Source of the DNA: an uncultured virus (IMG/VR IMGVR_UViG_3300022602_000055)
Lineage: Duplodnaviria; Heunggongvirae; Uroviricota; Caudoviricetes
Direction: 5' to 3' (one strand)
IMG/VR virus record: IMGVR_UViG_3300022602_000055
DNA length: 31,206 nt
In this document: positions 8,407 through 31,206 of the stretch, one piece after another
Numbering within the stretch: the stretch's first letter is position 1
How the letters are laid out: each line of letters begins with the position of its first letter
The notes under the pieces: model-generated
What the model saw: only the letters and a program-made list of their open reading frames with translations
What the model was told of the DNA's origin: nothing
Databases searched by the model: none
Position numbers and translations under genes: made by a program

Positions 8407-8436
8407 GTAAGTATTCTCCTAATTAGTATCTCGGTT

Positions 8437-8468
8437 AAAATAGAGCGAGCTCCGTAGAGCCCGCCCCC
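8437..8468 (-). terminator. Intrinsic terminator after major capsid gene
   Basis: GGGCGGGCTC-TACG-GAGCTCGCTC with cUACGg tetraloop, then TATTTT. Confidence 0.7.
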
Positions 8469-8483
8469 TCTGCTATTAAGTTG

Positions 8484-9557
8484 TTAGTTGGTTTCTGCAA
8501 TAACAACAGCCTGGTCAGTGATAAGACCGAGACCGAAGATTGAGTACCAAGCGATTGCGTGCTCACGACCGAAGTCCAAGATACCGCCATCGCGGAGCTC
8601 GACTGGGAGTGAGATAGCGTGACCGAATGCGTTATCTCCAATGAAGATAGCTGAGTAGCGGTCAGAACCACCGTTACCTGTGTAGGTAGCAGGAGTTGTG
8701 TAACCTCCACCAGGAAGAACTACAGGTGAAGCAACTGCAGTATCAGCGGTGTAGCTTGTACCAGCACCACCAGCAACCTTGAGAACCTGAGTGGTCTCAA
8801 TGAATACTGTGTCGTAGAGGCGACCGATTTCACCGAGCATGAAGTTACCTGGAGCAGCGTACTTTGTAACTTCGATGAACTCTGGGTTGTCGCGAAGTGT
8901 ACGGCTCTGGTGTGGGTGAACGAAAGCAACGTAGGTCTCGCCCAAACGTGGGATGTTCTTGGTAGCAAGGGTTTCGATGACGTCCTTGACAACGTGAGGT
9001 GTCAAGTAAGAGTTACCTGTCATTGAGGCACGTGATGTACCAAAGGTTCCGTATCCGTACCAGTTGTTAACTGCTGAAGATACTGATGAGCGGTCTTCAC
9101 CGTAAAGGGTTGAAGAAGCTGCATAGAGGGTGTCGCGTGAGAGCTGGTCAAGATAGACAGCCATGTTACGACCGAGAAGACGTGAAGCAGATGCCATCAC
9201 ATCGTCAAATGAGGCGTTGAGCAAAAGCTCTGAGATAGCAAGAGCATAACCATGCTCAGTAACAGTAATTGAGAACTGTTGTGCTGTAAGAGCGTTTGTC
9301 TGCATACGAACACCTTCGACGAGCGGTGAAGCAAAGCCGAGGTTGTTGTAACGCATGAAGTTAATCTGAAGACCAGGAGCTACTCCGAGCTCTGTCTTCT
9401 TTACTGCGAACTGCTCAAAGCGAAGGATAGGCATTGCTTGGAACAAGATTTCCTTGGACCAGATTGTCTGAATCGCTTGAGTCAGTTGGGTGTTAGTACC
9501 CGAATAAGCTGTTGGGGCTGCGGCGAGATTGCCAGAACCTGTAATTGCTGATGCCAT
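8484..9557 (-). CDS. Major capsid protein (HK97 fold, N4-gp56/P22-coat-like)
   Basis: 357 aa after scaffold; PGLQINFMRY, LVEGV, YVAFVHPHQ..TLR, GEIGRLYDTVFIET, DFGREHAIAWY; biased codon use; strong RBS. Confidence 0.92.
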   Translation of the reverse strand: MASAITGSGNLAAAPTAYSGTNTQLTQAIQTIWSKEILFQAMPILRFEQFAVKKTELGVAPGLQINFMRYNNLGFASPLVEGVRMQTNALTAQQFSITVTEHGYALAISELLLNASFDDVMASASRLLGRNMAVYLDQLSRDTLYAASSTLYGEDRSSVSSAVNNWYGYGTFGTSRASMTGNSYLTPHVVKDVIETLATKNIPRLGETYVAFVHPHQSRTLRDNPEFIEVTKYAAPGNFMLGEIGRLYDTVFIETTQVLKVAGGAGTSYTADTAVASPVVLPGGGYTTPATYTGNGGSDRYSAIFIGDNAFGHAISLPVELRDGGILDFGREHAIAWYSIFGLGLITDQAVVIAETN

Positions 9558-9600
9558 TTGGCTTTGACTCCTAAATTAGTCGTTGATGGATGAAGGTGGG

Positions 9601-10401
9601 TTAACTGAACATTCCCTGTGAACGACCTTGAGCGGTTTCGCTTAAGAGTCGTGAGCGGTATTTTGCGTATTCCGCCATTGGCATATTTGCAATCTCTTGC
9701 GGTGTCAATGTGCGTTGTTCCGAATTGGTTTCCAAAGGTCCAGCTGGGGGCGTAGTAACCCGTGTCCCCGTCATTTCGCGACGAATCTCTTGACGAGACG
9801 CCTTCGCATTGTTGAGAATAGAGTCTGTGCGAGCCTTCAAATCATTGATGCTTGCTTCAACTTCTTCTCTAGTATTTCCATTAACTAGGTCTACTAGCTC
9901 AGGTGCGATGTAATCGCGTTCCTGCTCAAGACGCTGGTTGCGGTAGTTTTGTAAATCAGACAACTGACGTTCTTTTTCCCAAAGTGAGAGGGCAGTTTCG
10001 CGAGCAAGACGCTCACGTTCCAACTCTTCCTTCCACTCTCGCTCCTTCAACTTAAGAAGGTCTTTAGCAGAAAGCTCTTCTTCAAGAACTTCGCGCTGTT
10101 TCTTATTAAGTTGTTCTAGCTCTTCTTGCTCACGTTTAGCTGCCTTAGCTGCGTCTTTGTCAGCTTCGCGCTTCTTTAGTGATTCAATCTCCGCCTTGAG
10201 CGAGTCAATTTGCGGATAGAGCTTTTCTTTTTCTTGCGAGCGTACTTTTGCTAAATCTTCCTCAGTGTAGAACTTCTGAGCATTAGCAGTTTTTGGAGTA
10301 GTAGTAAAAGCTGAGGCGTCAACGCCCTGGTTACCTACTACTGGGACTGTACCTGTCTCGGCTGCAAAGCCTTCAACAGCAACGTTGTTGATTTCTGACA
10401 T
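9601..10401 (-). CDS. Capsid scaffolding protein
   Basis: Charged coiled coil between portal and MCP; YTEEDL; C-terminal LTPQEIANMPMAEYAKYR. Confidence 0.8.
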   Translation of the reverse strand: MSEINNVAVEGFAAETGTVPVVGNQGVDASAFTTTPKTANAQKFYTEEDLAKVRSQEKEKLYPQIDSLKAEIESLKKREADKDAAKAAKREQEELEQLNKKQREVLEEELSAKDLLKLKEREWKEELERERLARETALSLWEKERQLSDLQNYRNQRLEQERDYIAPELVDLVNGNTREEVEASINDLKARTDSILNNAKASRQEIRREMTGTRVTTPPAGPLETNSEQRTLTPQEIANMPMAEYAKYRSRLLSETAQGRSQGMFS

Positions 10402-10412
10402 GCTTATATATC

Positions 10413-10441
10413 CTTATTCTCGGGGTCGTTTTCCAATGTAT
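10413..10441 (-). promoter_or_regulatory. Conserved 5' leader element, copy 1 (TTGGAAAACGACCCCG)
   Basis: 14/16 identity to 19272..19287; both flanked by ATACA upstream and TAAG downstream. Confidence 0.55.
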
Positions 10442-10476
10442 TTTCACGATTGACCTAACAGTTATTACAGTATTTA

Positions 10477-10512
10477 ATTTTTCTCCTACATTACGAAAAT
10501 GTCAGGCTAAAC
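10477..10512 (-). promoter_or_regulatory. Predicted phage promoter GTTTA-N25-AAAAAT (CTGACA -35, 17-nt spacer)
   Basis: GGTTTAGCCTGACA...AAAAAT upstream of scaffold-capsid genes. Confidence 0.7.
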
Positions 10513-10514
10513 CA

Positions 10515-12233
10515 TTATTTTTCGTAATCTTCTGGTACACGTCTTTGTGGGAGCTGCGTACCATAAGCTTCTGTTACTAGGCGGTTTCTGAGGTCCGCGT
10601 CACCTTGCTGAAGAATCATTTGAGCCTCATCTAGTACTGGAGTTGCTCCTCCAGCAGGGGATGGGGTTATTTGTTGACCCTCGCTAGTAGTTGGGAGAGG
10701 CACTGCGGTTCCATCTGGACCAGCCATCATTCCCGTTAATTGGGCAATTTCATTTTGAATCTCTGTCTGAAGCAGCTTAAGAGCGCCATCAGCCTTAGCG
10801 TCATCCATAAGTTCTTGACGGATTTCAGTAAGCTTTTCAGCAGGGAACATCTCTCCAAGCGTGCGCAAAGCACCTTCCTTAGACTCAAGCCCAAGGGTCA
10901 TCATGGTTTGAACTTCGTTCAAAAGGATGAGCTTGTCTAGAGGAAGTGGTGGTGGGAACTGGCAATAAGAGCGATAAGTAATAGGGTCTGAAGGGTCTAG
11001 CTGGGCTACCTGACCTGGCTTAAGAGGGGTAGTGCTTTCATTAGGGTTCCAGATAAAGGTCTCTGGTTCTTTAACTGCAAGGTTTAAAAGAATTAATTCG
11101 TTTACACGCTCTAGGGCATGTGCGTATTGAACAATCTTTTGGTGGTAACGCGCCATCAATGGTTGGAATTGAATGCTAAGAGCAACACCTGAAGTGTTAG
11201 AGATAGGCTGTGCTTGACCAAGAGCGGTCTCTGGGACACCCACCATCTCGTGCATGGCTTTCTTGAGCATGTCCATAAACTCAAGACCGCTTTTTAGACC
11301 CTGAGCACCGCCTTCAAGGTTTTCCACTTTGGCGTCTTTAGGAAGTCCACCCCAGACTTTATTAGCTCCTTTTTCGAGCTGGGAAGCTTTAGCTCCAATA
11401 ATAACTGTGACGGGAGCAGCGTGGTAATTAACAATATCGGCAATATCAGTAGCAACCTCGTTATAAGTGCGATTGATATTAATAATCTGGTCACAATCAC
11501 TGAGACCCCATGGACTACCGCTAATGCGAATATTAGGAGCATGGATAACAGGTATTGTGCCCAGCGGATTGGGGCGAGAATCGATGAGCTCGTCATTGAT
11601 ATATTCCTCGATGGTGTCGTCTGTCAAGATTTCAGTGTAGGTAAATACCTGACGTGTTCCTTCTAGTGATGTGCCCCAGAAACGATACTTGAGCTTAAAT
11701 CTAATTAAACGTTCACGGTCATGTGGGTGAAACTCTGGAAATGCAAACGACGCGTTCAGGGGAAGAATACGAACACGTCCTGGGTGAACGCGACCAGCAG
11801 AGTCTTCATAGGCTTCTTCATAAGCAACTTTGATAAAGCAGTCACCTGAAACCGTACCTTGCTGACCAATTTCCCAAAGCACAGTTGCCTTGTTGTTATC
11901 TACTTCCCATACACGCTCAAGAAGGTCTGGGACAATAGCTTCGGTCTCTTTAGGGCTACGGAAGTTAACGCCCTTGCCGAATGTAAAGTTAATGATGAAG
12001 TCTGAGAAAGCTCTAAAATAATTTAGAGCAATTTGAGGTTCGCCTGCTTGACGGCGATAAGAATAGTGGTGTCCAAGATACATTGCCCAGTTCAGGGAGT
12101 ATCTATTTAAGCGTGGACCATGTACTTCAAACTCTTCATCCGCTAGCTCTACAAGTCCGAGAGGAGAGATGGAGATAGTTAAATCGCTTGACGCCGCCCT
12201 GTAACTAGGGGGTGAAAAGTCAATTGAACTCAC
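10515..12233 (-). CDS. Portal protein (SPP1 gp6-like)
   Basis: 572 aa between terL and scaffold; FTFGKGV, GDCFIKV, NPLGTIPVIH, GLSD, SGVAL motifs. Confidence 0.9.
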   Translation of the reverse strand: MSSIDFSPPSYRAASSDLTISISPLGLVELADEEFEVHGPRLNRYSLNWAMYLGHHYSYRRQAGEPQIALNYFRAFSDFIINFTFGKGVNFRSPKETEAIVPDLLERVWEVDNNKATVLWEIGQQGTVSGDCFIKVAYEEAYEDSAGRVHPGRVRILPLNASFAFPEFHPHDRERLIRFKLKYRFWGTSLEGTRQVFTYTEILTDDTIEEYINDELIDSRPNPLGTIPVIHAPNIRISGSPWGLSDCDQIININRTYNEVATDIADIVNYHAAPVTVIIGAKASQLEKGANKVWGGLPKDAKVENLEGGAQGLKSGLEFMDMLKKAMHEMVGVPETALGQAQPISNTSGVALSIQFQPLMARYHQKIVQYAHALERVNELILLNLAVKEPETFIWNPNESTTPLKPGQVAQLDPSDPITYRSYCQFPPPLPLDKLILLNEVQTMMTLGLESKEGALRTLGEMFPAEKLTEIRQELMDDAKADGALKLLQTEIQNEIAQLTGMMAGPDGTAVPLPTTSEGQQITPSPAGGATPVLDEAQMILQQGDADLRNRLVTEAYGTQLPQRRVPEDYEK

Positions 12234-12292
12234 AACACATCCTTATCTATCCAGGCTAACAATACTAATAAGTCGATAAATCTACAGACGAC

Positions 12293-12601
12293 TCACGGTA
12301 ATTGATTTATGTTCTTTTTGACCTTTTTCCTAACAGGTCTAAGAACACGTTTCTTCTCTTCTTCTTCTTTTTTCTCAATAGCTTCATGTGCGTAATCGCG
12401 AAGACGTGGGTCCACTTCTCGCTTAGAAGCTACGAACTTTCCACCCATTTGTTGATACTTAGCGTGAATCCAGTGACCGCGTGCGGGGGAGTTTTTTGAA
12501 AACTTTGCGCTTGCTTGCGCAGCAATGGTGTTAAATAAACGTGGGTTGGAGGGCACTCCGATAGGACCTTCGGATACTTCTTTACCTCTGATAAGTGCCA
12601 T
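12293..12601 (-). CDS. Basic hypothetical protein
   Basis: AAGGA RBS; NPRLFNTI..QASAKF...KYQQMGGKF helical motif; Lys-rich tail. Confidence 0.65.
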   Translation of the reverse strand: MALIRGKEVSEGPIGVPSNPRLFNTIAAQASAKFSKNSPARGHWIHAKYQQMGGKFVASKREVDPRLRDYAHEAIEKKEEEEKKRVLRPVRKKVKKNINQLP

Positions 12602-12665
12602 TAATAATCCTTAGATAGGTCCCAGCCCCCAACCTTTAGGGTCAGGGGTTGGTCGTCTCTTTTAG

Positions 12666-13064
12666 TTAGTCGTTAACGACTGCTGGGTTAAGGCGCTTTT
12701 GATTTGAGCCGCTACGAGCTACCTCTTCAAAAGCCATCTCTGCTGACTTTCCGAAAGCTCCTTGTGAGAACTCACTCAAGGTGTTCTGTGCTTCTACCCA
12801 TGCTGCAGAACCAACGTGAGCGCGTTCGCGCATTGTCTCTTCAGCTGTCTTTGTGTGAACTGGGTTGTTGCAGTTTGGGCGACCCGCTGCTGCGATAAAG
12901 CCTTGTGAAGCTCCCTTTGAAAACTCTGCTGGAACATCTGTATCAGTTGCAATACCCTCTTCAAAACGAAGTGGTCCGCGCTGTCCTGGTGTTGCTGGGG
13001 ACATCTTGCGGTCATACATGTTTCCTGGAACTTCAGGGAATTTTGGTGTTGGTGCAATTGCCAT
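12666..13064 (-). CDS. Hypothetical protein in packaging module
   Basis: AGGAG RBS; own GTTTA promoter; RFEEGIATDTDVP and RERAHVGSAAWVEA motifs. Confidence 0.75.
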   Translation of the reverse strand: MAIAPTPKFPEVPGNMYDRKMSPATPGQRGPLRFEEGIATDTDVPAEFSKGASQGFIAAAGRPNCNNPVHTKTAEETMRERAHVGSAAWVEAQNTLSEFSQGAFGKSAEMAFEEVARSGSNQKRLNPAVVND

Positions 13065-13103
13065 TAGTTTAACTCCTAAATTAGGTTGAGGACCTCAGTT
13101 AAA

Positions 13104-13139
13104 AGTGTGCTACTTAATGGTAAGTAATACAGGCTAAAC
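13104..13139 (-). promoter_or_regulatory. Predicted phage promoter GTTTA-N25-CACACT
   Basis: GGTTTAGCC box at fixed spacing. Confidence 0.7.
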
Positions 13140-13144
13140 CTAGA

Positions 13145-14734
13145 TTATCTTTGGAAAAAGACATTTTGCGACATTTCTACCTGAGGCATGGTCAGGTCAA
13201 GCGTCAGGCTACAAGCAATAGCCAATGAGTCCGCATAGTCATCGTGAGCATGAGCCTCATCTGGGGCAGCAGCCAAAAAGTTAGGACCAGTGAACTTTGT
13301 TTCCAAATCAGTCATCTGTTGAACAAACCTCTTGTAGGTGCGAAGTCTGCGGGTTTTAGCGTGGGCAGGAAACCCAATTAAACGGCGGTCAATAAGAGCT
13401 TTAAGATGTTTCCAACGCTTAGACTGCTCAGGCTGACTACTACCGATAGCGTGAACCTCTGTTCTAGGTAGCAAGATTTTAAGGCGTTGAGCAACTGCGT
13501 CACCTACGCCGTTAGCGTCAACTCCAACAGCAAGAACATCGTAGTTACTCAAAAAGTTAACAATTTGAAAGTACTGGTCTTCCCAATCATCTCCCTGTAT
13601 CTCAAGCCAGTTAAGGATACGATGGTCGAAGTATCCAAATTCATCTGGTCTATCCCAATCAACCCAAACAACTGTGACTACCGTAGAGTCCATCTTTCTA
13701 GCAGGGTCAATGCCTACAACAACAGGAGTTCTTTGCCAAGCGCGAACAGTCTCTGCAGACTTATCTCCCAGCTCTTCCATAATGTTGCTGGTAACGAACA
13801 TTCCTCGTTCCAGTAACCATTTGTTACAGTAAGACATCTGAAACTCGTCTGAGTCTTCACCGATACGTAACTTTTCTTTTTTAATGAACTTGGCGTAATT
13901 AGGGTTGTACTTAGAAACTTCTCGCCAGTCCCACTCAAAGTGATTCTGTCTTTTTGCCCTAGCGGTCTGAACTCTTTTGTTCAGCTGAATGGAGCGGTAA
14001 AAATTATTTTTGTGCGTGGTAGGTGTACCTGTTTTAACCATAGTACCTGAGTAGTACGCAAGCATAGGAGAGATTGACTTGGAGACCACAAAGTCATCTG
14101 CCTCTTGACACTCATCAATAACAATGAGGTGAAAGGATTTAGATTCAATCTTTGCGCGAGGGTTAGCGGTCATCATCATTAAAGATGAGCCAGATTTCTT
14201 TAAACGAATTTGGCGAGTAACCCCTGGAACCTTACCAAGACTGTCATCAATCTCTGGGTCACCAAGAATCTCTAGTGCACGCTCTGAGGTAAGGCGGTTA
14301 ACAGTTCTACCAAATAGAGTTTCTACCTGACCTTCGACTGGGGCGAACATACCAATCCAGACTCCGTTAGAGAATTTGCCGAGTAAATCGGGATACATCT
14401 TAGCTAGGCGGGGGAGAAGAACCATGAGAGTTGCTACTGTATTAGCAATGGTTTCTGACTTACCTGACTGACGGGCTGCTAAAGCTGTTATTTCTTCACC
14501 GTCGTTAATTATTACTGACTCAATGATTCGTCTAGCCAAAGGCATTTGGTAGGGGTGGAGCTCATGCCCAACAAGAGCAGTTTGAAATTCAATGCAACGG
14601 TCTACTAGTTTTTTAACAAATTCTTTAGACAGCTCATCGAGCTCTTCTTCTTCCTCAACGGGGAGATTTTCTTCATCCTCGTCTTCAAGAAACTCATCTT
14701 CTTCAAAAAATTCTAGTTCTGTCATAATACCCAT
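13145..14734 (-). CDS. terL: Terminase large subunit
   Basis: Walker A ARQSGKS, Walker B LIVIDECQ, motif III GTP, nuclease VGIDPA and DDYADS; true start probably ATG at 14725. Confidence 0.95.
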   Translation of the reverse strand: MGIMTELEFFEEDEFLEDEDEENLPVEEEEELDELSKEFVKKLVDRCIEFQTALVGHELHPYQMPLARRIIESVIINDGEEITALAARQSGKSETIANTVATLMVLLPRLAKMYPDLLGKFSNGVWIGMFAPVEGQVETLFGRTVNRLTSERALEILGDPEIDDSLGKVPGVTRQIRLKKSGSSLMMMTANPRAKIESKSFHLIVIDECQEADDFVVSKSISPMLAYYSGTMVKTGTPTTHKNNFYRSIQLNKRVQTARAKRQNHFEWDWREVSKYNPNYAKFIKKEKLRIGEDSDEFQMSYCNKWLLERGMFVTSNIMEELGDKSAETVRAWQRTPVVVGIDPARKMDSTVVTVVWVDWDRPDEFGYFDHRILNWLEIQGDDWEDQYFQIVNFLSNYDVLAVGVDANGVGDAVAQRLKILLPRTEVHAIGSSQPEQSKRWKHLKALIDRRLIGFPAHAKTRRLRTYKRFVQQMTDLETKFTGPNFLAAAPDEAHAHDDYADSLAIACSLTLDLTMPQVEMSQNVFFQR

Positions 14735-14770
14735 AGTCTATGAGATGTCGGTTGCCTGGGTTACATAAAC
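14735..14770 (-). promoter_or_regulatory. Predicted terL promoter GTTTA-N25-TAGACT (near-leaderless)
   Basis: Same spacing as seven other sites; no SD before terL. Confidence 0.65.
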
Positions 14771-14816
14771 CCAGGCTAACCTTGTTACCACGACACGGAG
14801 AGAGGAAACACGCGGT
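14750..14816 (-). ncRNA. Candidate structured small RNA or leader with anti-SD loop
   Basis: TATAGT -10 six nt upstream; stem ACCGCG/CGUGGU with loop UGUUUCCUCUCUCCGUGU; second 13-bp stem GGUU(A)GCCUGGGUU/AACCCAGGCAACC. Confidence 0.5.
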
Positions 14817-14822
14817 AGCTTA

Positions 14823-14844
14823 ACTATACAGGTATTGTCGACAA
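14823..14844 (-). promoter_or_regulatory. Predicted -10 (TATAGT) with perfect palindrome TTGTCGACAA in spacer
   Basis: Seen directly in sequence. Confidence 0.5.
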
Positions 14845-14848
14845 AACG

Positions 14849-15097
14849 CTATTTGCGAATAAGCGTGTCGCGTACTTTGAGAGTGTCTACTACAGCGTGT
14901 AGAGCCTCAGCACCATTAAGGGCTTCTTCTAAGTAATAAGAATCGCGAGTTCTCATAAATGCGCTTAAGCACTTTCCTATCTCATTTACGCAGTTTTCTG
15001 CCCACATCTCCAGCTCTTGGCTAGGGATGCGTTGAATTCTTTTAGACACTTTTTCAGAGAACGGCTTAGTCCAAGGCTCTTTATTTCTTTTCAGCAT
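14849..15097 (-). CDS. Hypothetical helical protein
   Basis: GAGGA RBS; overlaps upstream gene. Confidence 0.65.
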   Translation of the reverse strand: MLKRNKEPWTKPFSEKVSKRIQRIPSQELEMWAENCVNEIGKCLSAFMRTRDSYYLEEALNGAEALHAVVDTLKVRDTLIRK

Positions 15098-15374
15098 TCC
15101 AGTCCTCTATGTCCTCTGTGCTTACAGGAATAGTTCTTGCCTTCATTGCTTGAGTAATTAGGTAAGCAGCATCGTCATCAGATATGTTTTCGTGGCTTTT
15201 GTAGAACCAACCAACATAGTAGCCTGGAATAGTTTTAGGAGCTCTAAAGATTAAACAACGACCTTTTCTAAAACGCTCTTCAGTTTCTTGCGTAGTCCCT
15301 AGTTCTATTACAGGGAAGAAGTTCTTATGGTAATAGTTAAGCTTTCCAGCATATAGTGGTCCAAATGATTTCAT
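15081..15374 (-). CDS. Hypothetical protein
   Basis: ATGA overlap with upstream gene. Confidence 0.65.
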   Translation of the reverse strand: MKSFGPLYAGKLNYYHKNFFPVIELGTTQETEERFRKGRCLIFRAPKTIPGYYVGWFYKSHENISDDDAAYLITQAMKARTIPVSTEDIEDWNAEKK

Positions 15375-15847
15375 TCGTTAAACATCACTCTCGTATTTTC
15401 GTCCATCTCTTCAGGGTCAAAATTAACATCCATGACATATTGAAGCCCGTTGGGACCCCTGCTGTCAAACCCCTCATTCCACAAAAACTTGCCTGTAGAT
15501 TGGGAAGTTTTCAGTCTAGTCCATACATCTGCTGGCACACCTCCCCACGACACCCAAGCACCATCAGGAAAACCCACTACAAGCTTTTGTTGGTCTCGGT
15601 TATAAGCAATCTTTTTAGCTCTAGGTTGTTTATGCTTCGCGGTAGGAGCTGTAGTTGGAGCAGTCTGCTGAGTCCAAGGAGTTGACCTAGCAATCTCCCA
15701 ACGCTCTTTCTTCTTTTCTTCAGGGAAGTAAATGTCATTGTAAGAAGGGACTACGTTGTTAGATGGTGTTTGACCTCGGTCAAAAAATATCTCTTCGGGA
15801 TTAAGCCTCGGTCTCTTCCTCGCCATAATCATCTCCTTCACATACAT
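15371..15847 (-). CDS. KTSC-domain protein
   Basis: IAYNRDQQKLVVGFPDG...GVPADVWTRLKTSQSTGKFL matches the KTSC pattern; start probably at a downstream Met after GAAGGAG. Confidence 0.7.
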   Translation of the reverse strand: MYVKEMIMARKRPRLNPEEIFFDRGQTPSNNVVPSYNDIYFPEEKKKERWEIARSTPWTQQTAPTTAPTAKHKQPRAKKIAYNRDQQKLVVGFPDGAWVSWGGVPADVWTRLKTSQSTGKFLWNEGFDSRGPNGLQYVMDVNFDPEEMDENTRVMFNE

Positions 15848-16139
15848 GGTCTTCGGTCTCTTCTTCGCGAACTCTTACAAAGCAGTTGGCGCAACGCAAC
15901 CATTTTATAGGTTTAAATTTATTTTGAGCGGTAGAGCCTAAAGGGGTGTCACTTCCATCTTCTGGAAACGCTGATTGATAATCCACAACAATCTTTGGTT
16001 CAGAGGCAGGATTACCCTGAGTCATCTCTGGTGGGAAAGGTCCCCTAGGAGCATGAGCATGTTTAGGAACTGGATGGGCTTGAGGAGCGTCAATTCTTTG
16101 GATTCTAGTAGCAAAGATACTCTCATCAAATGCTCCCAT
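15801..16139 (-). CDS. Hypothetical protein with C-terminal Zn finger
   Basis: CANC...HVC; TAATG overlap with upstream gene. Confidence 0.65.
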   Translation of the reverse strand: MGAFDESIFATRIQRIDAPQAHPVPKHAHAPRGPFPPEMTQGNPASEPKIVVDYQSAFPEDGSDTPLGSTAQNKFKPIKWLRCANCFVRVREEETEDHVCEGDDYGEEETEA

Positions 16140-16339
16140 TAGTTTTCGTCCGTCTTTTTCTTTCTAGTAGTCGTCTTCTTTACTGGCTCTTCTACGATAG
16201 GCGCAGGGATGTCGTAGTGACCTGCCATTGCCGTTGCGTGTAGGCGTAAAGGCAAGCATTTAGCGCAGTAGTAGATTGAGTTAGCGCCTTTATTCTCTAC
16301 TAAGTAGATTGCTTGGTTTTCGCAATTAGCACACTTCAC
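16139..16339 (-). CDS. Small Zn-finger protein
   Basis: AAGGAG RBS, GTG start; CANC...CAKC; basic tail. Confidence 0.7.
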   Translation of the reverse strand: MKCANCENQAIYLVENKGANSIYYCAKCLPLRLHATAMAGHYDIPAPIVEEPVKKTTTRKKKTDEN

Positions 16340-16355
16340 GATATCTCCTTATGGA

Positions 16356-16379
16356 AATGGGGGCATCTCTGCCCCCATT
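16356..16379 (-). terminator. Stable hairpin ending the lysis cluster
   Basis: AATGGGGGCA-GAGA-TGCCCCCATT perfect 10-bp stem, GNRA loop, short U tract. Confidence 0.65.
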
Positions 16380-16392
16380 AATTTGATTGATG

Positions 16393-16578
16393 TTACTTGG
16401 TTGTTGAAGCTGCTGAGAAGTGCTCGTAAGTGGACTTCAAAACAGGTCCGAAAACACCTATAAGTGCTGCCCATGCAACTTGCTTAAGGTGGTGGTTTCC
16501 ACCCTGCCAGATTGCAACTCCAGCGACTATGGTTGAAATAATGTAATGCTCAAATAGAGCCTTGGTCTTTGCGTTCAT
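16393..16578 (-). CDS. Small two-TM holin-like protein
   Basis: Two hydrophobic segments; GAGGAG RBS; lysis cluster. Confidence 0.6.
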   Translation of the reverse strand: MNAKTKALFEHYIISTIVAGVAIWQGGNHHLKQVAWAALIGVFGPVLKSTYEHFSAASTTK

Positions 16579-16580
16579 GT

Positions 16581-16808
16581 TTACTCCTCGATGTTGTTTG
16601 CGTATGGCGTTATGATGTGCGAATCAGCCTGCACGTTGGGTGAAGACGAATTCGACGTATGAGATGATACACCAGCTAGAGCCGCTGTGGCAACGGCTAC
16701 AAGGTGTTTCGGGTCAGTAGAATATCCTGTGGCAGCCCAAGTAGCCATTCCAGCGGAACCCGCTATAGCTAAGTGGGCTGGGCTACTGAAGTTAAGCTTT
16801 ATCCCCAC
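16581..16808 (-). CDS. Small membrane protein, holin-like
   Basis: Two Ala/Gly-rich hydrophobic segments; lysis cluster. Confidence 0.5.
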   Translation of the reverse strand: MGIKLNFSSPAHLAIAGSAGMATWAATGYSTDPKHLVAVATAALAGVSSHTSNSSSPNVQADSHIITPYANNIEE

Positions 16809-17118
16809 GGATGTGCTCCAATATCTCTTTTACGTGATGTCGGAGCTCCTCAATGTGATTGTGGGTCTCTTGGTCAAGTTTTAGGTCTTTAGTAATTATA
16901 CGCCTGTCTTCATCCCCTGAGCGGTTAGTCGCGTTCAAGAGAAGTCCTGACAAGAGGATAGATTCTAAAGATACGGTTAATGTGAGCAGATTAAATGGGT
17001 ACGGGTCAAAAGCCGCGAAGGTCATCCAAAAAGACCAAAAGACTAGATGGATAATTAAGAACCAAGGTGAGCCAAAAGCGGAGGAGCACCAGTCAGATAT
17101 TTTCTGAAAGTGTCTCAT
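16792..17118 (-). CDS. DUF1003-like membrane protein
   Basis: FGSPWFL...FDPYPFNLLTLTVSLE...NR...DR signature. Confidence 0.8.
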   Translation of the reverse strand: MRHFQKISDWCSSAFGSPWFLIIHLVFWSFWMTFAAFDPYPFNLLTLTVSLESILLSGLLLNATNRSGDEDRRIITKDLKLDQETHNHIEELRHHVKEILEHIRGDKA

Positions 17119-17984
17119 TCATTAGCCTTAGCCACCATAGACGTGTAAGTAGCCGCATCAATACCTTTGCCCTTTGAAGCTTTAAGCCCTGGGTATAGCC
17201 CTTGATAGACAGGGATTAGAGCAATCTCTTCCTCAGTCAAAACACTTGATACAAGGTTTGCAGGCATCAACCCAGCGTTAGCTAAAGCTTTGGCTACTAC
17301 TATCTCTACCTTGCCTTTTGCCCCCGCTTTAAACACAGAGGAGCCAGGGAACGGAGGAGCAACGATTACTGTAGGTTTAGTCGTAGGAATTGGGGCTGGA
17401 GTATTTGAAGTATGGATAGCTGCTACACCACCACCTGTAAGCGCTGTAGCTCCTGCCACACCTGCTGCAAGACCTTTATTCTGTCCAAGAGATTTAGTAG
17501 GAGTAGAGCTTCCAATATAGGCAGGACGAGCGATAGCCATCACATATAGATAAGGACGATGGCGCCTATAGCATCCATCCCCGTTTGCTTGGTTTCCTGT
17601 ATAAGACTCTGGACCTGTGTTGAAGCCTATTGTGGTTAGTCCGTCTTTAGAAGCACCTTCGACAATCTCTACGTGGTCCGCAACGCCATTTCCTGACCAG
17701 GAAAAAAATACAATATCCCCTGGAAGTGCAGAGTACTTGTCAACAATACGCTTGTTCTTTTGGAACCAAGTAAGACCCGCAGGGCAGTAGGAGAAGCCTT
17801 TAGGAGTTTGAGCAGCGACAAGGTGGGAGGCATTTGCTTGGGCAAATACCCAGCTAACTCCCATCGCGCAATAGCTCTCGTTAGGAATCCCATACCAAGA
17901 CCCGTATGGGTTCTCGTTATTAGGTCCTTCGACAAACCCAATCTGAGTACGAGCAATGTTTACGATGTCAACGCCAGAAGTCAT
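17115..17984 (-). CDS. Endolysin, CHAP amidase/peptidase
   Basis: ARTQIGFVEGPNNEN.YG.WYG, YCAMGVSWVF (catalytic Cys), PGDIVFF, HVEIV (catalytic His); C-terminal PFPG.. cell-wall-binding-like region. Confidence 0.85.
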   Translation of the reverse strand: MTSGVDIVNIARTQIGFVEGPNNENPYGSWYGIPNESYCAMGVSWVFAQANASHLVAAQTPKGFSYCPAGLTWFQKNKRIVDKYSALPGDIVFFSWSGNGVADHVEIVEGASKDGLTTIGFNTGPESYTGNQANGDGCYRRHRPYLYVMAIARPAYIGSSTPTKSLGQNKGLAAGVAGATALTGGGVAAIHTSNTPAPIPTTKPTVIVAPPFPGSSVFKAGAKGKVEIVVAKALANAGLMPANLVSSVLTEEEIALIPVYQGLYPGLKASKGKGIDAATYTSMVAKANE

Positions 17985-18421
17985 TATTCGCCATCCTTAA
18001 TTACCTCAGCTGCTGGAGCGGTACCAGCCTTACGAAATCTAAAAGTTTCCCACAGCGGTGCAGGAATCTCGTGAATACCAAATCTAGTTCTGTGATGTGC
18101 AGAACAAAGCACTTCAAGGTTTCCTGGGGACTCAATCCATTCTTGAAAATCTTCATCATTTTCAAAATGAAGACCAAATGCCTGTTCAATTTTATGCGGG
18201 TCCATATCGTTGATTTGACTGAACTCTACAAAACTGTGGTGCAGTTCTGGACCACCAGAGCATAGGTCATCATCAATAATGCACTTCCACAAACCTTGCC
18301 GTTTAATCCTTGCCTTAGCTTGATTGAATAAGTGATAGTGCGGGTCGCTCTCACGCGGCTCATGCTCAGGAACCGATACAGCGAGGTGAAGATTCATTTT
18401 CTGCTTATGCGCATCTGTCAC
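17984..18421 (-). CDS. HNH-like Zn-binding protein
   Basis: C.....C....ELHH ... NLEVLCSAHHR...GIH. Confidence 0.6.
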   Translation of the reverse strand: MTDAHKQKMNLHLAVSVPEHEPRESDPHYHLFNQAKARIKRQGLWKCIIDDDLCSGGPELHHSFVEFSQINDMDPHKIEQAFGLHFENDEDFQEWIESPGNLEVLCSAHHRTRFGIHEIPAPLWETFRFRKAGTAPAAEVIKDGE

Positions 18422-18921
18422 TGGTAAATCAATCTTTCAGCTAAGTCGCCTGGGACCACTAGGTAGTCAGGCTTGTCCAGTAAAGAGATTCCAGCTTTAT
18501 CGTAAGCTTCAGCAACAAGCTCAGAACAGATAAAGCCATCTTTCCTAGCTAAGTAAGTAAAGAAGGGTAGGTTTATCTTTAAGCCTAAGATTCTTAAAGC
18601 TAGCAAAGAAATAGTGAAGAAGTCGTAGGGACGCCCTACAAAAGACTCAGCCGCCTCTGCAATTTTGATTCGCTCAATAGGGGTAAGCATTTCGTGCTTA
18701 TTCCATGCTATGTTCTTGTAGTCAGAGATATTTACTATCTTTACCCCAGTAGGGTCGGCGCTAACGGCTTTGCCTTCTCCAATGTAGACAATAGCGTGGT
18801 TCCACCTGCTCGTCGTTCCTAGACGGATTAGCAGCCCAAAGAACCCATTAGTCTTTACAACGCCGTAATCTCCAATTCTAGGCTCATACGCGCTAAGCTC
18901 TTCTAACACCCTCTTCAACAT
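18418..18921 (-). CDS. Permuted papain-like NlpC/P60 amidase (YiiX/YaeF family)
   Basis: GD...IR..T.SRWNHAIVYIG; GRPYDF; FICSELVAEAY; PGDL. Confidence 0.85.
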   Translation of the reverse strand: MLKRVLEELSAYEPRIGDYGVVKTNGFFGLLIRLGTTSRWNHAIVYIGEGKAVSADPTGVKIVNISDYKNIAWNKHEMLTPIERIKIAEAAESFVGRPYDFFTISLLALRILGLKINLPFFTYLARKDGFICSELVAEAYDKAGISLLDKPDYLVVPGDLAERLIYQ

Positions 18922-19243
18922 GAGCCTGTACCCGCCCTTCTAGCCTAGATAAGTCCTTAACTACCTCAATTTGATGTGTTCGAAGTTCTTTGACATCTGC
19001 CTTAACTTCAGCAATATCTTCTTTTAAGCTTTTGACGATGGGAAGTATTTGTAGTTTAATCGCATCGCTGACAGAGCTGCCGTGATTAGGTTTGAGCTCT
19101 TCTAAGCTTGGGCGCATCTCTTCCATGTACTCTTTAAAGGCTTCTGTTGAGTGCTGTCTTACATACCAGCGAGCAATCCCACCAACAGTACCTGCAATAA
19201 ATAGAGATGATGAGGCTGTCGCCACAATTGTTGCTGCGTCCAT
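18893..19243 (-). CDS. Membrane-anchored coiled-coil protein (lysis-associated)
   Basis: N-terminal TM, ELKPNHGSSVSDAI motif, coiled coil; first gene of lysis operon. Confidence 0.65.
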   Translation of the reverse strand: MDAATIVATASSSLFIAGTVGGIARWYVRQHSTEAFKEYMEEMRPSLEELKPNHGSSVSDAIKLQILPIVKSLKEDIAEVKADVKELRTHQIEVVKDLSRLEGRVQAHVEEGVRRA

Positions 19244-19265
19244 TAGACCCCCGAAATAGTAGTTG

Positions 19266-19296
19266 CTTACGCGGGGTAGTTGTCCAAATAATGTAT
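19266..19296 (-). promoter_or_regulatory. Conserved 5' leader element, copy 2 (TTGGACAACTACCCCG)
   Basis: 14/16 identity to 10421..10436. Confidence 0.55.
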
Positions 19297-19317: not shown

Positions 19318-19353
19318 ATTTTTACACATAAAACAAAAATTATCAGGGTAAAT
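19318..19353 (-). promoter_or_regulatory. Predicted lysis promoter ATTTA-N25-AAAAAT
   Basis: ATTTACCCTGATA...AAAAAT parallels GTTTAGCCTGACA...AAAAAT at 10477..10512. Confidence 0.6.
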
Positions 19354-19366
19354 AAGTATTCTCAAG

Positions 19367-19397
19367 TTGACACGGGTATGTAACTCTGTGGTAACTT
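19367..19397 (+). promoter_or_regulatory. Predicted sigmaA-like promoter for SLT-whiB island
   Basis: TTGACA, 19-nt spacer, extended -10 TGgTAACTT. Confidence 0.5.
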
Positions 19398-19408: not shown

Positions 19409-19432
19409 AAACCACCGTTAAGGTGGTTTTTT
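19409..19432 (+). terminator. Terminator-like hairpin in leader of SLT gene
   Basis: AAACCACC-GTTAA-GGTGGTTT followed by TTT. Confidence 0.6.
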
Positions 19433-19451
19433 CATTTTGAGAGGAGCAATA

Positions 19452-19985
19452 ATGCTTAATATCAGAATCAACGTCACTATCGACGTTAAAAAGTGGGCGA
19501 CTGCCCTTGCAACATTTGCACTAGTAATCGGACATATGATTACTCCAGCACAGGCTGTAGCACCAGAAGTATATAAGTTCAAGACTTCTTTTGATGCAAT
19601 TCCCGCAACTGTGCATCTTACATATTTAAATGTAACGGCAACTAAACAACAAGCAGCCGATGCTATTACAAGCCCTTATGCTAAATACTTTGACCCAGAA
19701 GCTCTGGCATTTTTAACTGTTTATGCAAAAGGTCAAACTTTGCAGGAATGGAAGTGCTTGGATACACTCTGGAACCATGAAAGCCATTTCAACCCTAAGG
19801 CTCTTAATATGGGTTCAAAGGCATACGGCATAGCTCAATTCCTACCTACAACGTGGGGAAACTATAAGTTAACTAAAACAAGTAGCGCTGCTTTACAAAT
19901 TAAATACGGATTACATTATATTAAAGCGAGATATGGAGACGCATGTAGTGCATGGGCTTTCTGGCAAAAACACAGTTGGTATTAA
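19452..19985 (+). CDS. Secreted lytic transglycosylase (SLT/lysozyme-like, actinobacterial type)
   Basis: GAGGAG RBS then ATG 19452; signal-like N-terminus; CL..LWNHES.FNP.A, AYGIAQF, QI.YGL.YI..RYG..C.AW...SWY. Confidence 0.88.
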   Translation: MLNIRINVTIDVKKWATALATFALVIGHMITPAQAVAPEVYKFKTSFDAIPATVHLTYLNVTATKQQAADAITSPYAKYFDPEALAFLTVYAKGQTLQEWKCLDTLWNHESHFNPKALNMGSKAYGIAQFLPTTWGNYKLTKTSSAALQIKYGLHYIKARYGDACSAWAFWQKHSWY

Positions 19986-20226
19986 CGCCCCTACATTTGA
20001 CGGTTCACAGTTATGCAGTCAAACAGACCCAGAAATATTTTTTCCAGAGATGGACACATCTCCAAGTATTGTCAGGGCTGCAAAGAACATCTGCCGTAGA
20101 TGTCACTTTCAAGAACCTTGTCTAGAGTACGCTCTACGGACAGTTCCAATAGGAATCTGGGGGGGTACTTCAGATAAGGAAAGGCAAGAGCTCAGAAGGC
20201 TTAGAAAGCAAAAAGCCGCCCTTTAG
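19933..20226 (+). CDS. whiB: WhiB-family Fe-S transcription regulator
   Basis: C...DPEIFFP...AK.IC..C....C; GIWGG turn; basic tail RRLRKQK; start uncertain. Confidence 0.95.
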   Translation: METHVVHGLSGKNTVGINAPTFDGSQLCSQTDPEIFFPEMDTSPSIVRAAKNICRRCHFQEPCLEYALRTVPIGIWGGTSDKERQELRRLRKQKAAL

Positions 20227-26446: not shown

Positions 26447-26482
26447 ACAGTAGAGTAATTGTATATAAATTAACGGCTAAAC
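26447..26482 (-). promoter_or_regulatory. Predicted phage promoter GTTTA-N25-TACTGT
   Basis: GGTTTAGCC box at fixed spacing; heads the adhesin/modification cassette. Confidence 0.7.
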
Positions 26483-31063: not shown

Positions 31064-31206
31064 ATTCTTCTTCCTCTACTAACTCTTCTCCTGGGACAAA
31101 TATGATACGGGGAAGTTGACCCACATCTTTAGTTGCTTCAGCCCAGATAGCAGTCTTTTGTAGGTGTTCTCTATCTTGTGGGTAAAGGTCTTTTAACAAC
31201 TCTTTC
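31056..31206 (-). CDS. Hypothetical protein, partial (3' end)
   Basis: Open frame ...KELLKDLYPQDREHLQKTAIWAEATKDVGQLPRIIFVPGEELVEEEEYE*. Confidence 0.55.
   Translation of the reverse strand, partial: KELLKDLYPQDREHLQKTAIWAEATKDVGQLPRIIFVPGEELVEEEEYE

Follow-up and report, generated by a model that had tools for sequence, protein, structure and literature searches.

Do the capsid and lysis operons of an uncultured phage begin with the same regulatory RNA element? The question is raised by a 31,206-nucleotide (nt) stretch of DNA from an uncultured member of the Caudoviricetes (IMG/VR record IMGVR_UViG_3300022602_000055; hereafter the window), in which two very similar 16-nt sequences lie in the leaders of two minus-strand operons. 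One leader (site 1) precedes a putative scaffold gene and the capsid gene, and the other (site 2) precedes the first gene of the lysis operon. The original prediction for this DNA took the 16-mer to be an RNA operator or antitermination site that couples capsid production with lysis. We found that both leaders are conserved in related phages, that the lysis leader forms a hairpin with compensatory changes over its ribosome-binding site, and that the scaffold leader is open whereas the lysis leader is closed.

Two leaders behind matching promoter-like sites

On the minus (coding) strand, TTGGAAAACGACCCCG (10436..10421) and TTGGACAACTACCCCG (19287..19272) are identical at 14/16 positions, with mismatches at positions 6 and 10, exactly as had been predicted. 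The flanks said to accompany them, ATACA and TAAG, are present at both sites but not in register: ATACA directly adjoins the element at site 1 and is 4 nt off at site 2, and TAAG begins 4 nt past the element at site 1 and 2 nt past it at site 2. By our own estimate a few such matches are expected among ~2 kb of intergenic DNA, and the bare 14/16 match is weak evidence. A near match at the window's end (TGGGTCAACTTCCCCG; 31108-31123, minus strand), which has 3 mismatches to the element and is located in the possible end of an open reading frame (ORF) running off the window, is probably due to chance.

The sites and genes that frame the two leaders are as follows:

10477..10511, minus strand: scaffold/capsid promoter-like site, with TTTAGCCTGACA (-35 region), a 17-nt spacer, and AAAAAT at 10482..10477
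10402..10470, minus strand: predicted scaffold leader, ~69 nt
9601..10401, minus strand: putative scaffold gene, 266 amino acids, between portal and capsid genes, named by position only
19318..19352, minus strand: lysis promoter-like site, with TTTACCCTGATA, a 17-nt spacer, and AAAAAT
18893..19243, minus strand: first lysis-operon gene, 116 amino acids, with an N-terminal hydrophobic stretch, holin-like by position

The pattern CTGAYA-N16-18-AAAAAT occurs exactly twice in the window, both times on the minus strand (10477-10505 and 19318-19346). Its expected count is 0.07 and two or more copies were seen in 0/100 shuffles, for a pattern chosen post hoc; the extended pattern TTTA-N4-GAYA...NANAAT returns the identical two sites. 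This count agrees with the earlier statement that the two ~70-nt leaders lie behind the window's only two sites of this kind. The leader lengths, ~69 nt (scaffold) and ~68 nt (lysis), assume that transcription starts ~7 nt past the -10. CTGACA-17-AAAAAT scores 9/12 and keeps A2 and T6 of the -10, in line with a predicted promoter of the sigma-70/sigma-A type. Relatives repeat the scaffold promoter layout (TTTA-N4-GACA, ~17 nt, nAAAAT), and their lysis leaders carry TAAAAT, TAAACT, or TAGAAT ~31 nt 5' of a short box described below. In a global alignment, the window's two promoter-plus-leader regions scored 34, compared to 8.2 +/- 3.9 in shuffles (0/1000 reached 34), and all other intergenic regions scored <=19 against either of them. 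The two regions are therefore more alike than expected by chance.

One further sequence was seen near these promoter-like sites. The 10-mer GTTTAGCCTG occurs exactly at 10503-10512 and 13130-13139 (minus strand), on the coding strand of intergenic DNA, and with 1-2 mismatches at 14772-14781, 12252-12261, 26473-26482, and 19344-19353 (all minus strand); with mismatches allowed, it showed no overall enrichment. RNA-library contigs of three runs end at 13084/13085, ~50 nt 3' of the copy at 13130-13139. This 10-mer may be a common promoter-region motif.

A nearly invariant, unfolded leader before the scaffold gene

To follow the leaders among relatives, we scanned IMG/VR with the capsid and portal genes. 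More than 600 IMG/VR stretches have capsid or portal, with at least 599 confirmed in the capsid scan and at least 602 in the portal scan; 80 loci were retained from each scan. Homologues of the capsid protein numbered 3882. The capsid-locus and portal-locus sets overlap in contigs, and 91 site 1 leaders are unique. The conserved parts of the window's own leader are listed here:

10445..10456, minus strand: GGTCA then ..GTG (GGTCAATCGTG in the window), invariant columns in alignment A2 and kept in a distant clade
10421..10436, minus strand: site 1 element TTGGAAAACGACCCCG, with the shared box TTGGAAAAC at 10428..10436
10411..10415, minus strand: Shine-Dalgarno AAGGA, nearly invariant in A2, with ATG at 10401..10399

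In relatives the site 1 copy sits within an almost invariant sequence of ~55 nt, GGTCA..GTG..TYGGAMAACGACC..AGRA. Exactly one match to T[CT]GGA[N]AACGACCC[AC][TG], with at most 1 substitution allowed, is present in 74/80 capsid loci; of the six remaining loci, five begin too near the capsid gene to include the leader, and the sixth (L034) carries TGGAAAACGACC. Among loci covering at least 170 nt past the portal gene, 137/142 contain GGTCA-N10-45-box-GACC. Three of the five misses have GGAAGACGACC (a GGAAGAC variant) and two reflect mis-placed portal ends. In A2, an alignment of 59 sequences, the invariant columns read G-T-GGTCA, G-G, and T..A..A.GACC..AG.A, followed by AAGGA and ATG, whereas variation is seen 5' of GGTCA and at the beginning of the scaffold protein. 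A pattern scan revealed a further clade with GGTCA-TGTG-N8-TCGGAAAACGACC-N3-AGAA (11/73 unique matches). In a complete member of the distant clade, whose portal protein is 68% identical to the window's, the core is kept while its flanks diverge. Judged by this conservation, the ~55-nt invariant leader has a strong claim to be a new cis-regulatory RNA motif.

The sole pairing that RNAalifold predicts from the site 1 alignment is GGUC:GACC. A second, optional hairpin was found between GGTCA and the box, where 33/71 unique spacers are longer by 8-12 nt. All 33 long spacers form a hairpin of 3-5 bp at one common position, mostly with a tetraloop, and they do so with at least 12 different stems (GCC/GGC, GCCC/GGGC, GCCA/TGGC, GAGC/GCTC, GAGA/TCTC, GGGA/TCCC, GGGC/GCCC, GGGG/CCCC, AGGC/GCCT, ATGC/GCAT, and others). 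The mean energy of these hairpins is -5.6 kcal/mol, compared to -2.8 kcal/mol for shuffles. Five stems are imperfect, and their mismatches are all G.U and none A.C, which fits selection on the sense-strand RNA; the remaining 38/71 unique variants have no hairpin. From this pattern of substitutions we conclude that the scaffold leader acts as sense-strand RNA, and these G.U pairs, together with the optional covarying hairpin, back the RNA-level role that had been proposed for the element.

The same insertions bear on whether the elements could instead be DNA operators, with a transcription regulator of the late genes bound to the first transcribed stretch behind each promoter. Such an explanation would fit the position of the elements, at +20 to +50 of promoter-like sites, and the WhiB-type regulator gene that adjoins the lysis promoter, and invariance of primary sequence is typical of protein-binding DNA. 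However, GGTCA..GTG and the box can be pushed apart by insertions of 8-12 nt, site 1 has no constant spacing between -10 and box, and the lysis box is fused to an RNA helix. Because the insertions form covarying, G.U-only hairpins, a fixed-spacing DNA operator is argued against, and we consider this explanation improbable.

Outside the optional hairpin, the scaffold leader tends not to fold. The window's site 1 leader folds worse than its shuffles (z-score, +1.83), and the 91 unique site 1 leaders have a mean z of +0.79 relative to dinucleotide shuffles, with 78/91 above 0. For the 58 leaders that lack the optional hairpin, the mean z is +1.04.

Two other ideas about these leaders were tried and rejected. 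A leader peptide before the box fails because ATG/GTG is not conserved and insertions of 8, 10, and 12 nt break any frame. "AACGAC" as a general enhancer fails because the capsid-gene leaders of 54 unique relatives do not keep it. That capsid-gene leader (9558-9600, minus strand, and its counterparts in relatives) is a short C/A-rich, G-poor spacer with a strongly conserved AAGGAGTCAnAGCTAAATG at its end.

Members of the distant clade (L260, L283, L324, L315, L286, and L262) also carry, in the scaffold promoter region, an inverted repeat of 6-7 bp ~20-60 nt 5' of GGTCA. Its arms differ from phage to phage (TTCAGCA/TGCTGAA, GTTCAC/GTGAAC, TCAATC/GATTGA, and others) and are followed by TTATCT or TTGTTT. 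This repeat may be a portal terminator that overlaps the next promoter.

A conserved hairpin over the lysis ribosome-binding site

The lysis leader differs from the scaffold leader in that it is folded. Its two main parts are the following:

19279..19287, minus strand: shared box TTGGACAAC in the lysis leader, the 5' half of site 2 (19272..19287)
19243..19287, minus strand: predicted hairpin sequestering the ribosome-binding site and start codon, from the fold and from covariation of the homologous hairpin

The minimum-free-energy fold of the window's lysis leader (-18.6 kcal/mol) contains the ACCCCG/CGGGGG pairing that the original prediction had placed over the ribosome-binding site. In this fold, CCCCG (19276..19272) is joined to CGGGG (19253..19249). 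UUGGAC (19287..19282) is joined to GUCUAA (19248..19243), which ends in the A of the ATG. CGGGGGUCUAA(UG) is thereby paired, and the stem arm is the Shine-Dalgarno/start region itself. Taken alone, the window's fold is no better than that of shuffles (z, -1.0; 32/200 shuffles fold equally well). Over the relatives, lysis leaders fold better than dinucleotide shuffles, with a mean z of -0.97 and 49/59 below 0.

An alignment-based scan with the SLT transglycosylase gene added 80 further loci to the lysis set, in which start codons were set by an ORF rule rather than by annotation. In these leaders the conserved part of site 2 is its 5' half, WYGGAHAAY, only; the other half varies and forms the 5' arm of a hairpin. 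The motif [ACT][CT]GGA[ACT]AA[CT] is matched by 44/68 unique lysis leaders, and a relaxed form of the box is matched by 63/67, at a fixed place at the foot of the hairpin. The sequence that follows the box is lineage-specific and pairs with the sequence just 5' of the start codon. The arm pairs of relatives include CCATTCTGT/ACAGAATGG, CTATTCTGT/ACAGAATAG, CCATTCTAT/ATAGAATGG, AAAACTCTTAT/ATAGGAGTTTT, ATCTCAAT/ATTGAGAT, AAAACTC/GAGTTTT, TATCGCT/AGCGATA, AGACCTC/GGGGTCT, and ACCCC/GGGGT, beside (A)CCCCG/CGGGG(GU) in the window. In 54/64 leaders the end of the 3' arm (AGAAUGG and similar) falls -7..+12 nt from the predicted start, and in several relatives the stem takes in the CAAC of the box.

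Covariation was quantified in a MAFFT alignment (A3) for a 9-pair hairpin derived from the major class of that same alignment. Paired cells made up 69.8% of the total, compared to 61.2% in shuffles (0/500 reached this value) and 34-46% in slid controls. Both sides were changed in 44 cells, versus 23.1 in shuffles (0/500), and the covariation score was 0.219 versus 0.132 (0/500), with 7/9 pairs changing on both sides. The window's fold and the compensatory changes in relatives together bear out the predicted pairing, and they argue that ACCCCG/CGGGGG is a genuine, conserved hairpin that sequesters the ribosome-binding site. In the distant clade we found no SLT homologue (G007 and G008) and no box-bearing gap in the 16 kb 5' of its site 1.

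The divergent intergenic region upstream of this leader holds two more conserved features, both on the plus strand. Its best-conserved sequence is TTGACA-N7-8-GTAACTCT (19368-19392), of which TGTCAAG is present in 41/66 and AGAGTTA in 32/66 unique relatives, at a spacing unfit for a -35/-10 pair. Between the conserved TTGACA and the SLT-WhiB genes, just 5' of the SLT ribosome site, lies an 8-bp hairpin, AAACCACC..GGTGGTTT followed by TTTTTCATTTT (19409-19429), that resembles an intrinsic terminator. Relatives keep this hairpin with differing stems (AGCCACC/GGTGGCT, GGCGCC/GGCGCC, AGACGCTA/TAGCGTCT, and AAACAT/ATGTTT). The hairpin may attenuate transcription in the leader, or it may stabilise the 5' end of the divergent operon.

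The leaders share a short box

Although both leaders are conserved among relatives, the proposal that they carry one and the same 16-nt element did not hold, as only the 8-9 nt box WYGGAHAAY is common to them. In an unanchored count of conserved 7-mers, CGGACAA, GGACAAC, and GGAAAAC were the sole words common to both leader families. A profile search restricted to leaders gave at least 3 bits in only 5/58 lysis leaders, compared to 0/1160 decoys. From these profile and 7-mer comparisons, therefore, the shared part is the box of 8-9 nt. A G(T/G)G precedes it at 8-9 nt, and some lysis copies have an extended likeness to site 1 (GGACAACGACC in L091 and GGACAAAGACC in L089). Homology of the whole leaders of sites 1 and 2 was also considered, and it was unsupported by comparisons of the upstream profiles.

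We found no sign that more operons belong to the set. The window has 8 copies of WYGGAHAAY versus 5.6 expected, and neither GKG-N7-10-box nor YGGAHAACGACC was enriched over reversed-pattern controls in five long records; two extra matches in one of these relatives (G005) lie inside ORFs. A search for an antisense partner of the box returned none above control.

A possible landing site on both leaders

How might an open and a closed leader be read through the same short box? We suggest that transcription from two host-type (sigma-70/sigma-A-like) late promoters would yield untranslated leaders of ~70 nt, both acting as RNA. The 3' arm of the lysis-leader hairpin would be the Shine-Dalgarno region (in the window, also the A of the start codon), such that translation of the first lysis gene would be held down. 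The almost invariant scaffold/capsid leader would be selected to stay unfolded, and because it is unfolded its ribosome site would be open. The box, single-stranded and 5' of the ribosome site in both leaders, could then serve as a common landing site on the mRNA, occupied either by a trans-acting RNA-binding protein of phage or host or by the 30S subunit (as a standby site, through its Shine-Dalgarno-like GGA). Since the box stands where the lysis hairpin begins on its 5' side, with some of its bases within the stem, its occupancy would compete with the helix and open the lysis ribosome site. That the box is a shared landing site for a common factor or the 30S subunit, with the sequestering hairpin alongside, is the reading we tentatively prefer, though we stop short of calling it probable.

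Elements of this arrangement are known from other systems. In the mom mRNA of phage Mu, a hairpin hides the translation start and the recognition site for Com lies 5' of the hairpin and partly within it. Like that site, the box stands on the 5' side of a hairpin, and binding would open the ribosome site; unlike it, a second box stands in a leader that is unstructured and leaves its ribosome site open, the two recognition sequences bear no relation, and a Com homologue was not identified. In the standby model of de Smit and van Duin, an unpaired stretch lies beside a helix that hides the Shine-Dalgarno sequence. Here, too, an unpaired stretch with a Shine-Dalgarno-like GGA flanks a stable helix over the Shine-Dalgarno, whereas standby sites are usually not sequence-conserved and the box, together with the ~55-nt site 1 leader, is nearly invariant. 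The scaffolding protein gene of P22 is under autogenous post-transcriptional control, and T4 RegA has operators on several mRNAs at sites that overlap the AUG. By analogy with these two, a head-assembly gene would be controlled post-transcriptionally through a short, unstructured RNA operator common to several messages. The box differs from RegA sites overlapping the AUG in lying 35-75 nt upstream, and its binding partner is only putative.

One possible trans-acting factor, a candidate only, is a KTSC-domain protein of 158 amino acids (15371-15847, minus strand; PF13619, E = 8.4e-9) that is conserved in 30 related loci with 36-48% identity across the domain. We take this domain to be one for which Pfam suggests RNA binding. 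A more specific version of the proposal, in which the box is the operator of one late regulator (the KTSC protein or free scaffold) on both leaders and head assembly sets the opening of lysis, seems to us a long shot.

Lake metatranscriptome contigs give a weak hint that the leaders are transcribed. Three RNA-library contigs identical to the window (10003-10452 in X3, 10242-10441 in X4, and 9748-10549 in X6) span the site 1 element, which is therefore present in RNA libraries. Two of them stop 18-29 nt 3' of the predicted transcription start of the scaffold leader, and one runs through the promoter. An X6 contig of an L089-like relative includes the lysis leader and its box, with loose ends at 19235 and 19264. 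Contig depth is high on the capsid gene and about zero on the portal gene in two runs, where uncovered stretches are no evidence.

Several observations weigh against a common landing site. A hidden Markov model of the site 1 core, built with the window excluded, recovers the window's site 1 at E = 1e-8 and its site 2 at only 2.7, and it finds the lysis leaders of relatives weakly (best, L089 at E = 0.004 and L150 at 0.17). The part 5' of the box gives no profile signal (ungapped profile comparison, p = 0.08), and by our own estimate the chance of an 8-9 nt shared word in a conserved leader of ~50 nt is ~0.01-0.03, which is not negligible. The box is absent from 4/67 unique lysis leaders, including that of a 70-kb record (G006), and in the window it is partly paired in its own minimum-free-energy fold. 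As for structure, the best stem is more than 2 standard deviations above shuffles in only 28/64 lysis leaders. RNAalifold predicts 0 pairs on the whole, heterogeneous lysis alignment because sub-lineages use different registers, and GGTC/GACC in site 1 is invariant, so that no compensatory changes stand behind its predicted pairing. RNA libraries can hold DNA, and neither the ends nor the abundance of an RNA can be read from their contigs. Binding at the box, the putative binding partner, and the action of one factor on both leaders are all inferred from sequence.

The weak profile similarity, confined to the box, would also be expected if the two leaders were functionally unrelated. The hairpin would then be a lone throttle on lysis, the scaffold leader a separate enhancer, stability element, or operator, and the box a product of chance plus similar late-promoter architecture or of a promoter module that was duplicated long ago. 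Relatives do not keep the 3' half of site 2, neither the window nor the five long records are enriched for the box, some lysis leaders lack it, and the strong pairwise alignment score of the window includes promoter parts. Nevertheless, chance does not readily place the box at the hairpin foot in 63/67 unique lysis leaders or make it the sole word shared with an invariant scaffold leader, and several lineages extend the lysis copy as in site 1 (L091 and L089). We regard unrelated leaders as rather unlikely.

Transcript processing was weighed as well. The box and its flanks might be an entry or cleavage site for a ribonuclease that sets the half-life of late mRNA: a conserved, single-stranded A/C-rich stretch adjoins hairpins, the optional 5'-proximal GC hairpin could shield the 5' end, and 10452 and 10441, where two of the RNA-library contigs stop, are leader positions. 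But contig ends cannot show RNA ends, and processing leaves the pairing of the lysis arm with the Shine-Dalgarno unexplained. We therefore give this account little credence.

Comparison with antitermination sites and known RNA families

Antitermination, the other half of the original prediction, would require a nut- or put-like site whose nascent RNA modifies RNA polymerase so that terminators are read through in both late operons. A nut-type site combines boxA, whose pyrimidine-rich CUCUUU(A) core is bound by NusB/NusE, with a boxB hairpin that an N-type protein recognises through a conserved loop. As with lambda nutL/nutR and rrn boxA, there are two copies in the promoter-proximal leaders of two long operons, each just 3' of its promoter, and the lysis copy has a hairpin 3' of its linear box. 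The boxA consensus is given as UGCUCUUUA(ACA) in Escherichia coli and AUGAUCUUUGAAA in Bacillus subtilis (PMC2724277, PMC13753749). Compared by eye with these two consensus sequences, which may differ from that of the host, the box WYGGAHAAY, preceded by AU-rich or CAU sequence, has no CUCUUU core. Nor does the hairpin behave as a boxB, since the loops of lysis hairpins vary in length (13-40 nt) and sequence, the stem is not conserved, and it covers the Shine-Dalgarno; site 1 is often hairpin-free (38/71 unique scaffold-leader variants) and otherwise unstructured.

The terminators that such a site would act upon were only partly as predicted. Past the capsid gene, the hairpin at 8407-8483 has AUUUUAA on its 3' side and is the sole U-tailed hairpin of the intrinsic type on the coding strand; it is bridged by an RNA-library contig (8125-8610), as read-through would have it. 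The intra-operon intergenic hairpins at 16340-16392 and 12602-12665 have no coding-strand U-run. Within the leaders, no minus-strand terminator-like site was called in either, which leaves no attenuator of the intrinsic-terminator type there: the lysis hairpin is followed by CUAAUGGACG, with no U-run, and site 1 is without such a hairpin. Other sub-operons have promoter-like motifs of their own, and no box was found at other operons. Thus, we found no positive evidence for an antitermination site, and we consider one very improbable. Because the lysis hairpin hides the ribosome-binding site, control is probably translational rather than by antitermination.

Known RNA families offered no alternative. 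A whole-window search of Rfam release 15 gave nothing with E <= 1 close to site 1 or site 2, and three focused scans returned far-sub-threshold, unrelated matches, the best leader score being 20.9 bits against an 82-bit threshold (a microRNA model).

Gene content and related phages

Almost all genes of the window lie on the minus strand, and their families were named by PHROG and Pfam scans. The genes around the two operons are as follows:

13145-14734: large terminase
10515-12233: portal (phrog_64, 5.5e-37)
8484-9557: major capsid protein (phrog_1357, 1.6e-63)
3' of the capsid gene: collagen-like tail fibres (PHROG/Pfam scans)
18418-18921: NlpC/P60 peptidase, following the first lysis gene
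17115-17984: CHAP endolysin, following in the lysis operon
19437-19985, plus strand: SLT transglycosylase
19933-20226, plus strand: WhiB regulator (PF02467, 1.9e-17)

The protein encoded at 9601-10401 matched no PHROG or Pfam family. A gene of 132 amino acids between the terminase and portal genes (12666-13064, minus strand) is covered by RNA-library contigs in 4/4 runs. The divergent arrangement of SLT and lysis operon is kept in relatives. Related records include G002, G005, and G007; two related records, 95.8 and 98.0 kb long, are complete and carry direct terminal repeats. There was no close match among GenBank phages. One source labels the capsid homologues "N4-gp56 family major capsid protein."

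The DNA and part of the RNA-library contigs come from lake-water samples. The WhiB gene suggests an actinobacterial host, and an N4-type capsid together with WhiB would mark a phage of a likely actinobacterial host in a lake habitat. One 36.7-kb contig match lies inside a metagenome-assembled genome labelled Chloroflexaceae, from which no 16S was obtained; we take it to be a mis-binned phage contig.

Implications for late gene control in lake phages

The phages with these leaders are abundant in lakes and uncultured, and the leaders themselves are two candidate cis-regulatory RNAs of phage late operons outside Rfam families. The ~55-nt leader remains invariant while the surrounding proteins diverge to 68% identity, and the covarying hairpin at the ribosome site of the lysis operon offers a concrete means, open to testing, by which lysis could be delayed. 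Should the leaders prove not to be read by one factor, they would still provide two defined leader motifs and promoter layouts for a group without a genetic system. If one factor does read both boxes, head assembly would be linked to the timing of lysis post-transcriptionally, a capsid-lysis link in ~96-kb lake phages that have N4-type capsids and form a very abundant clade.

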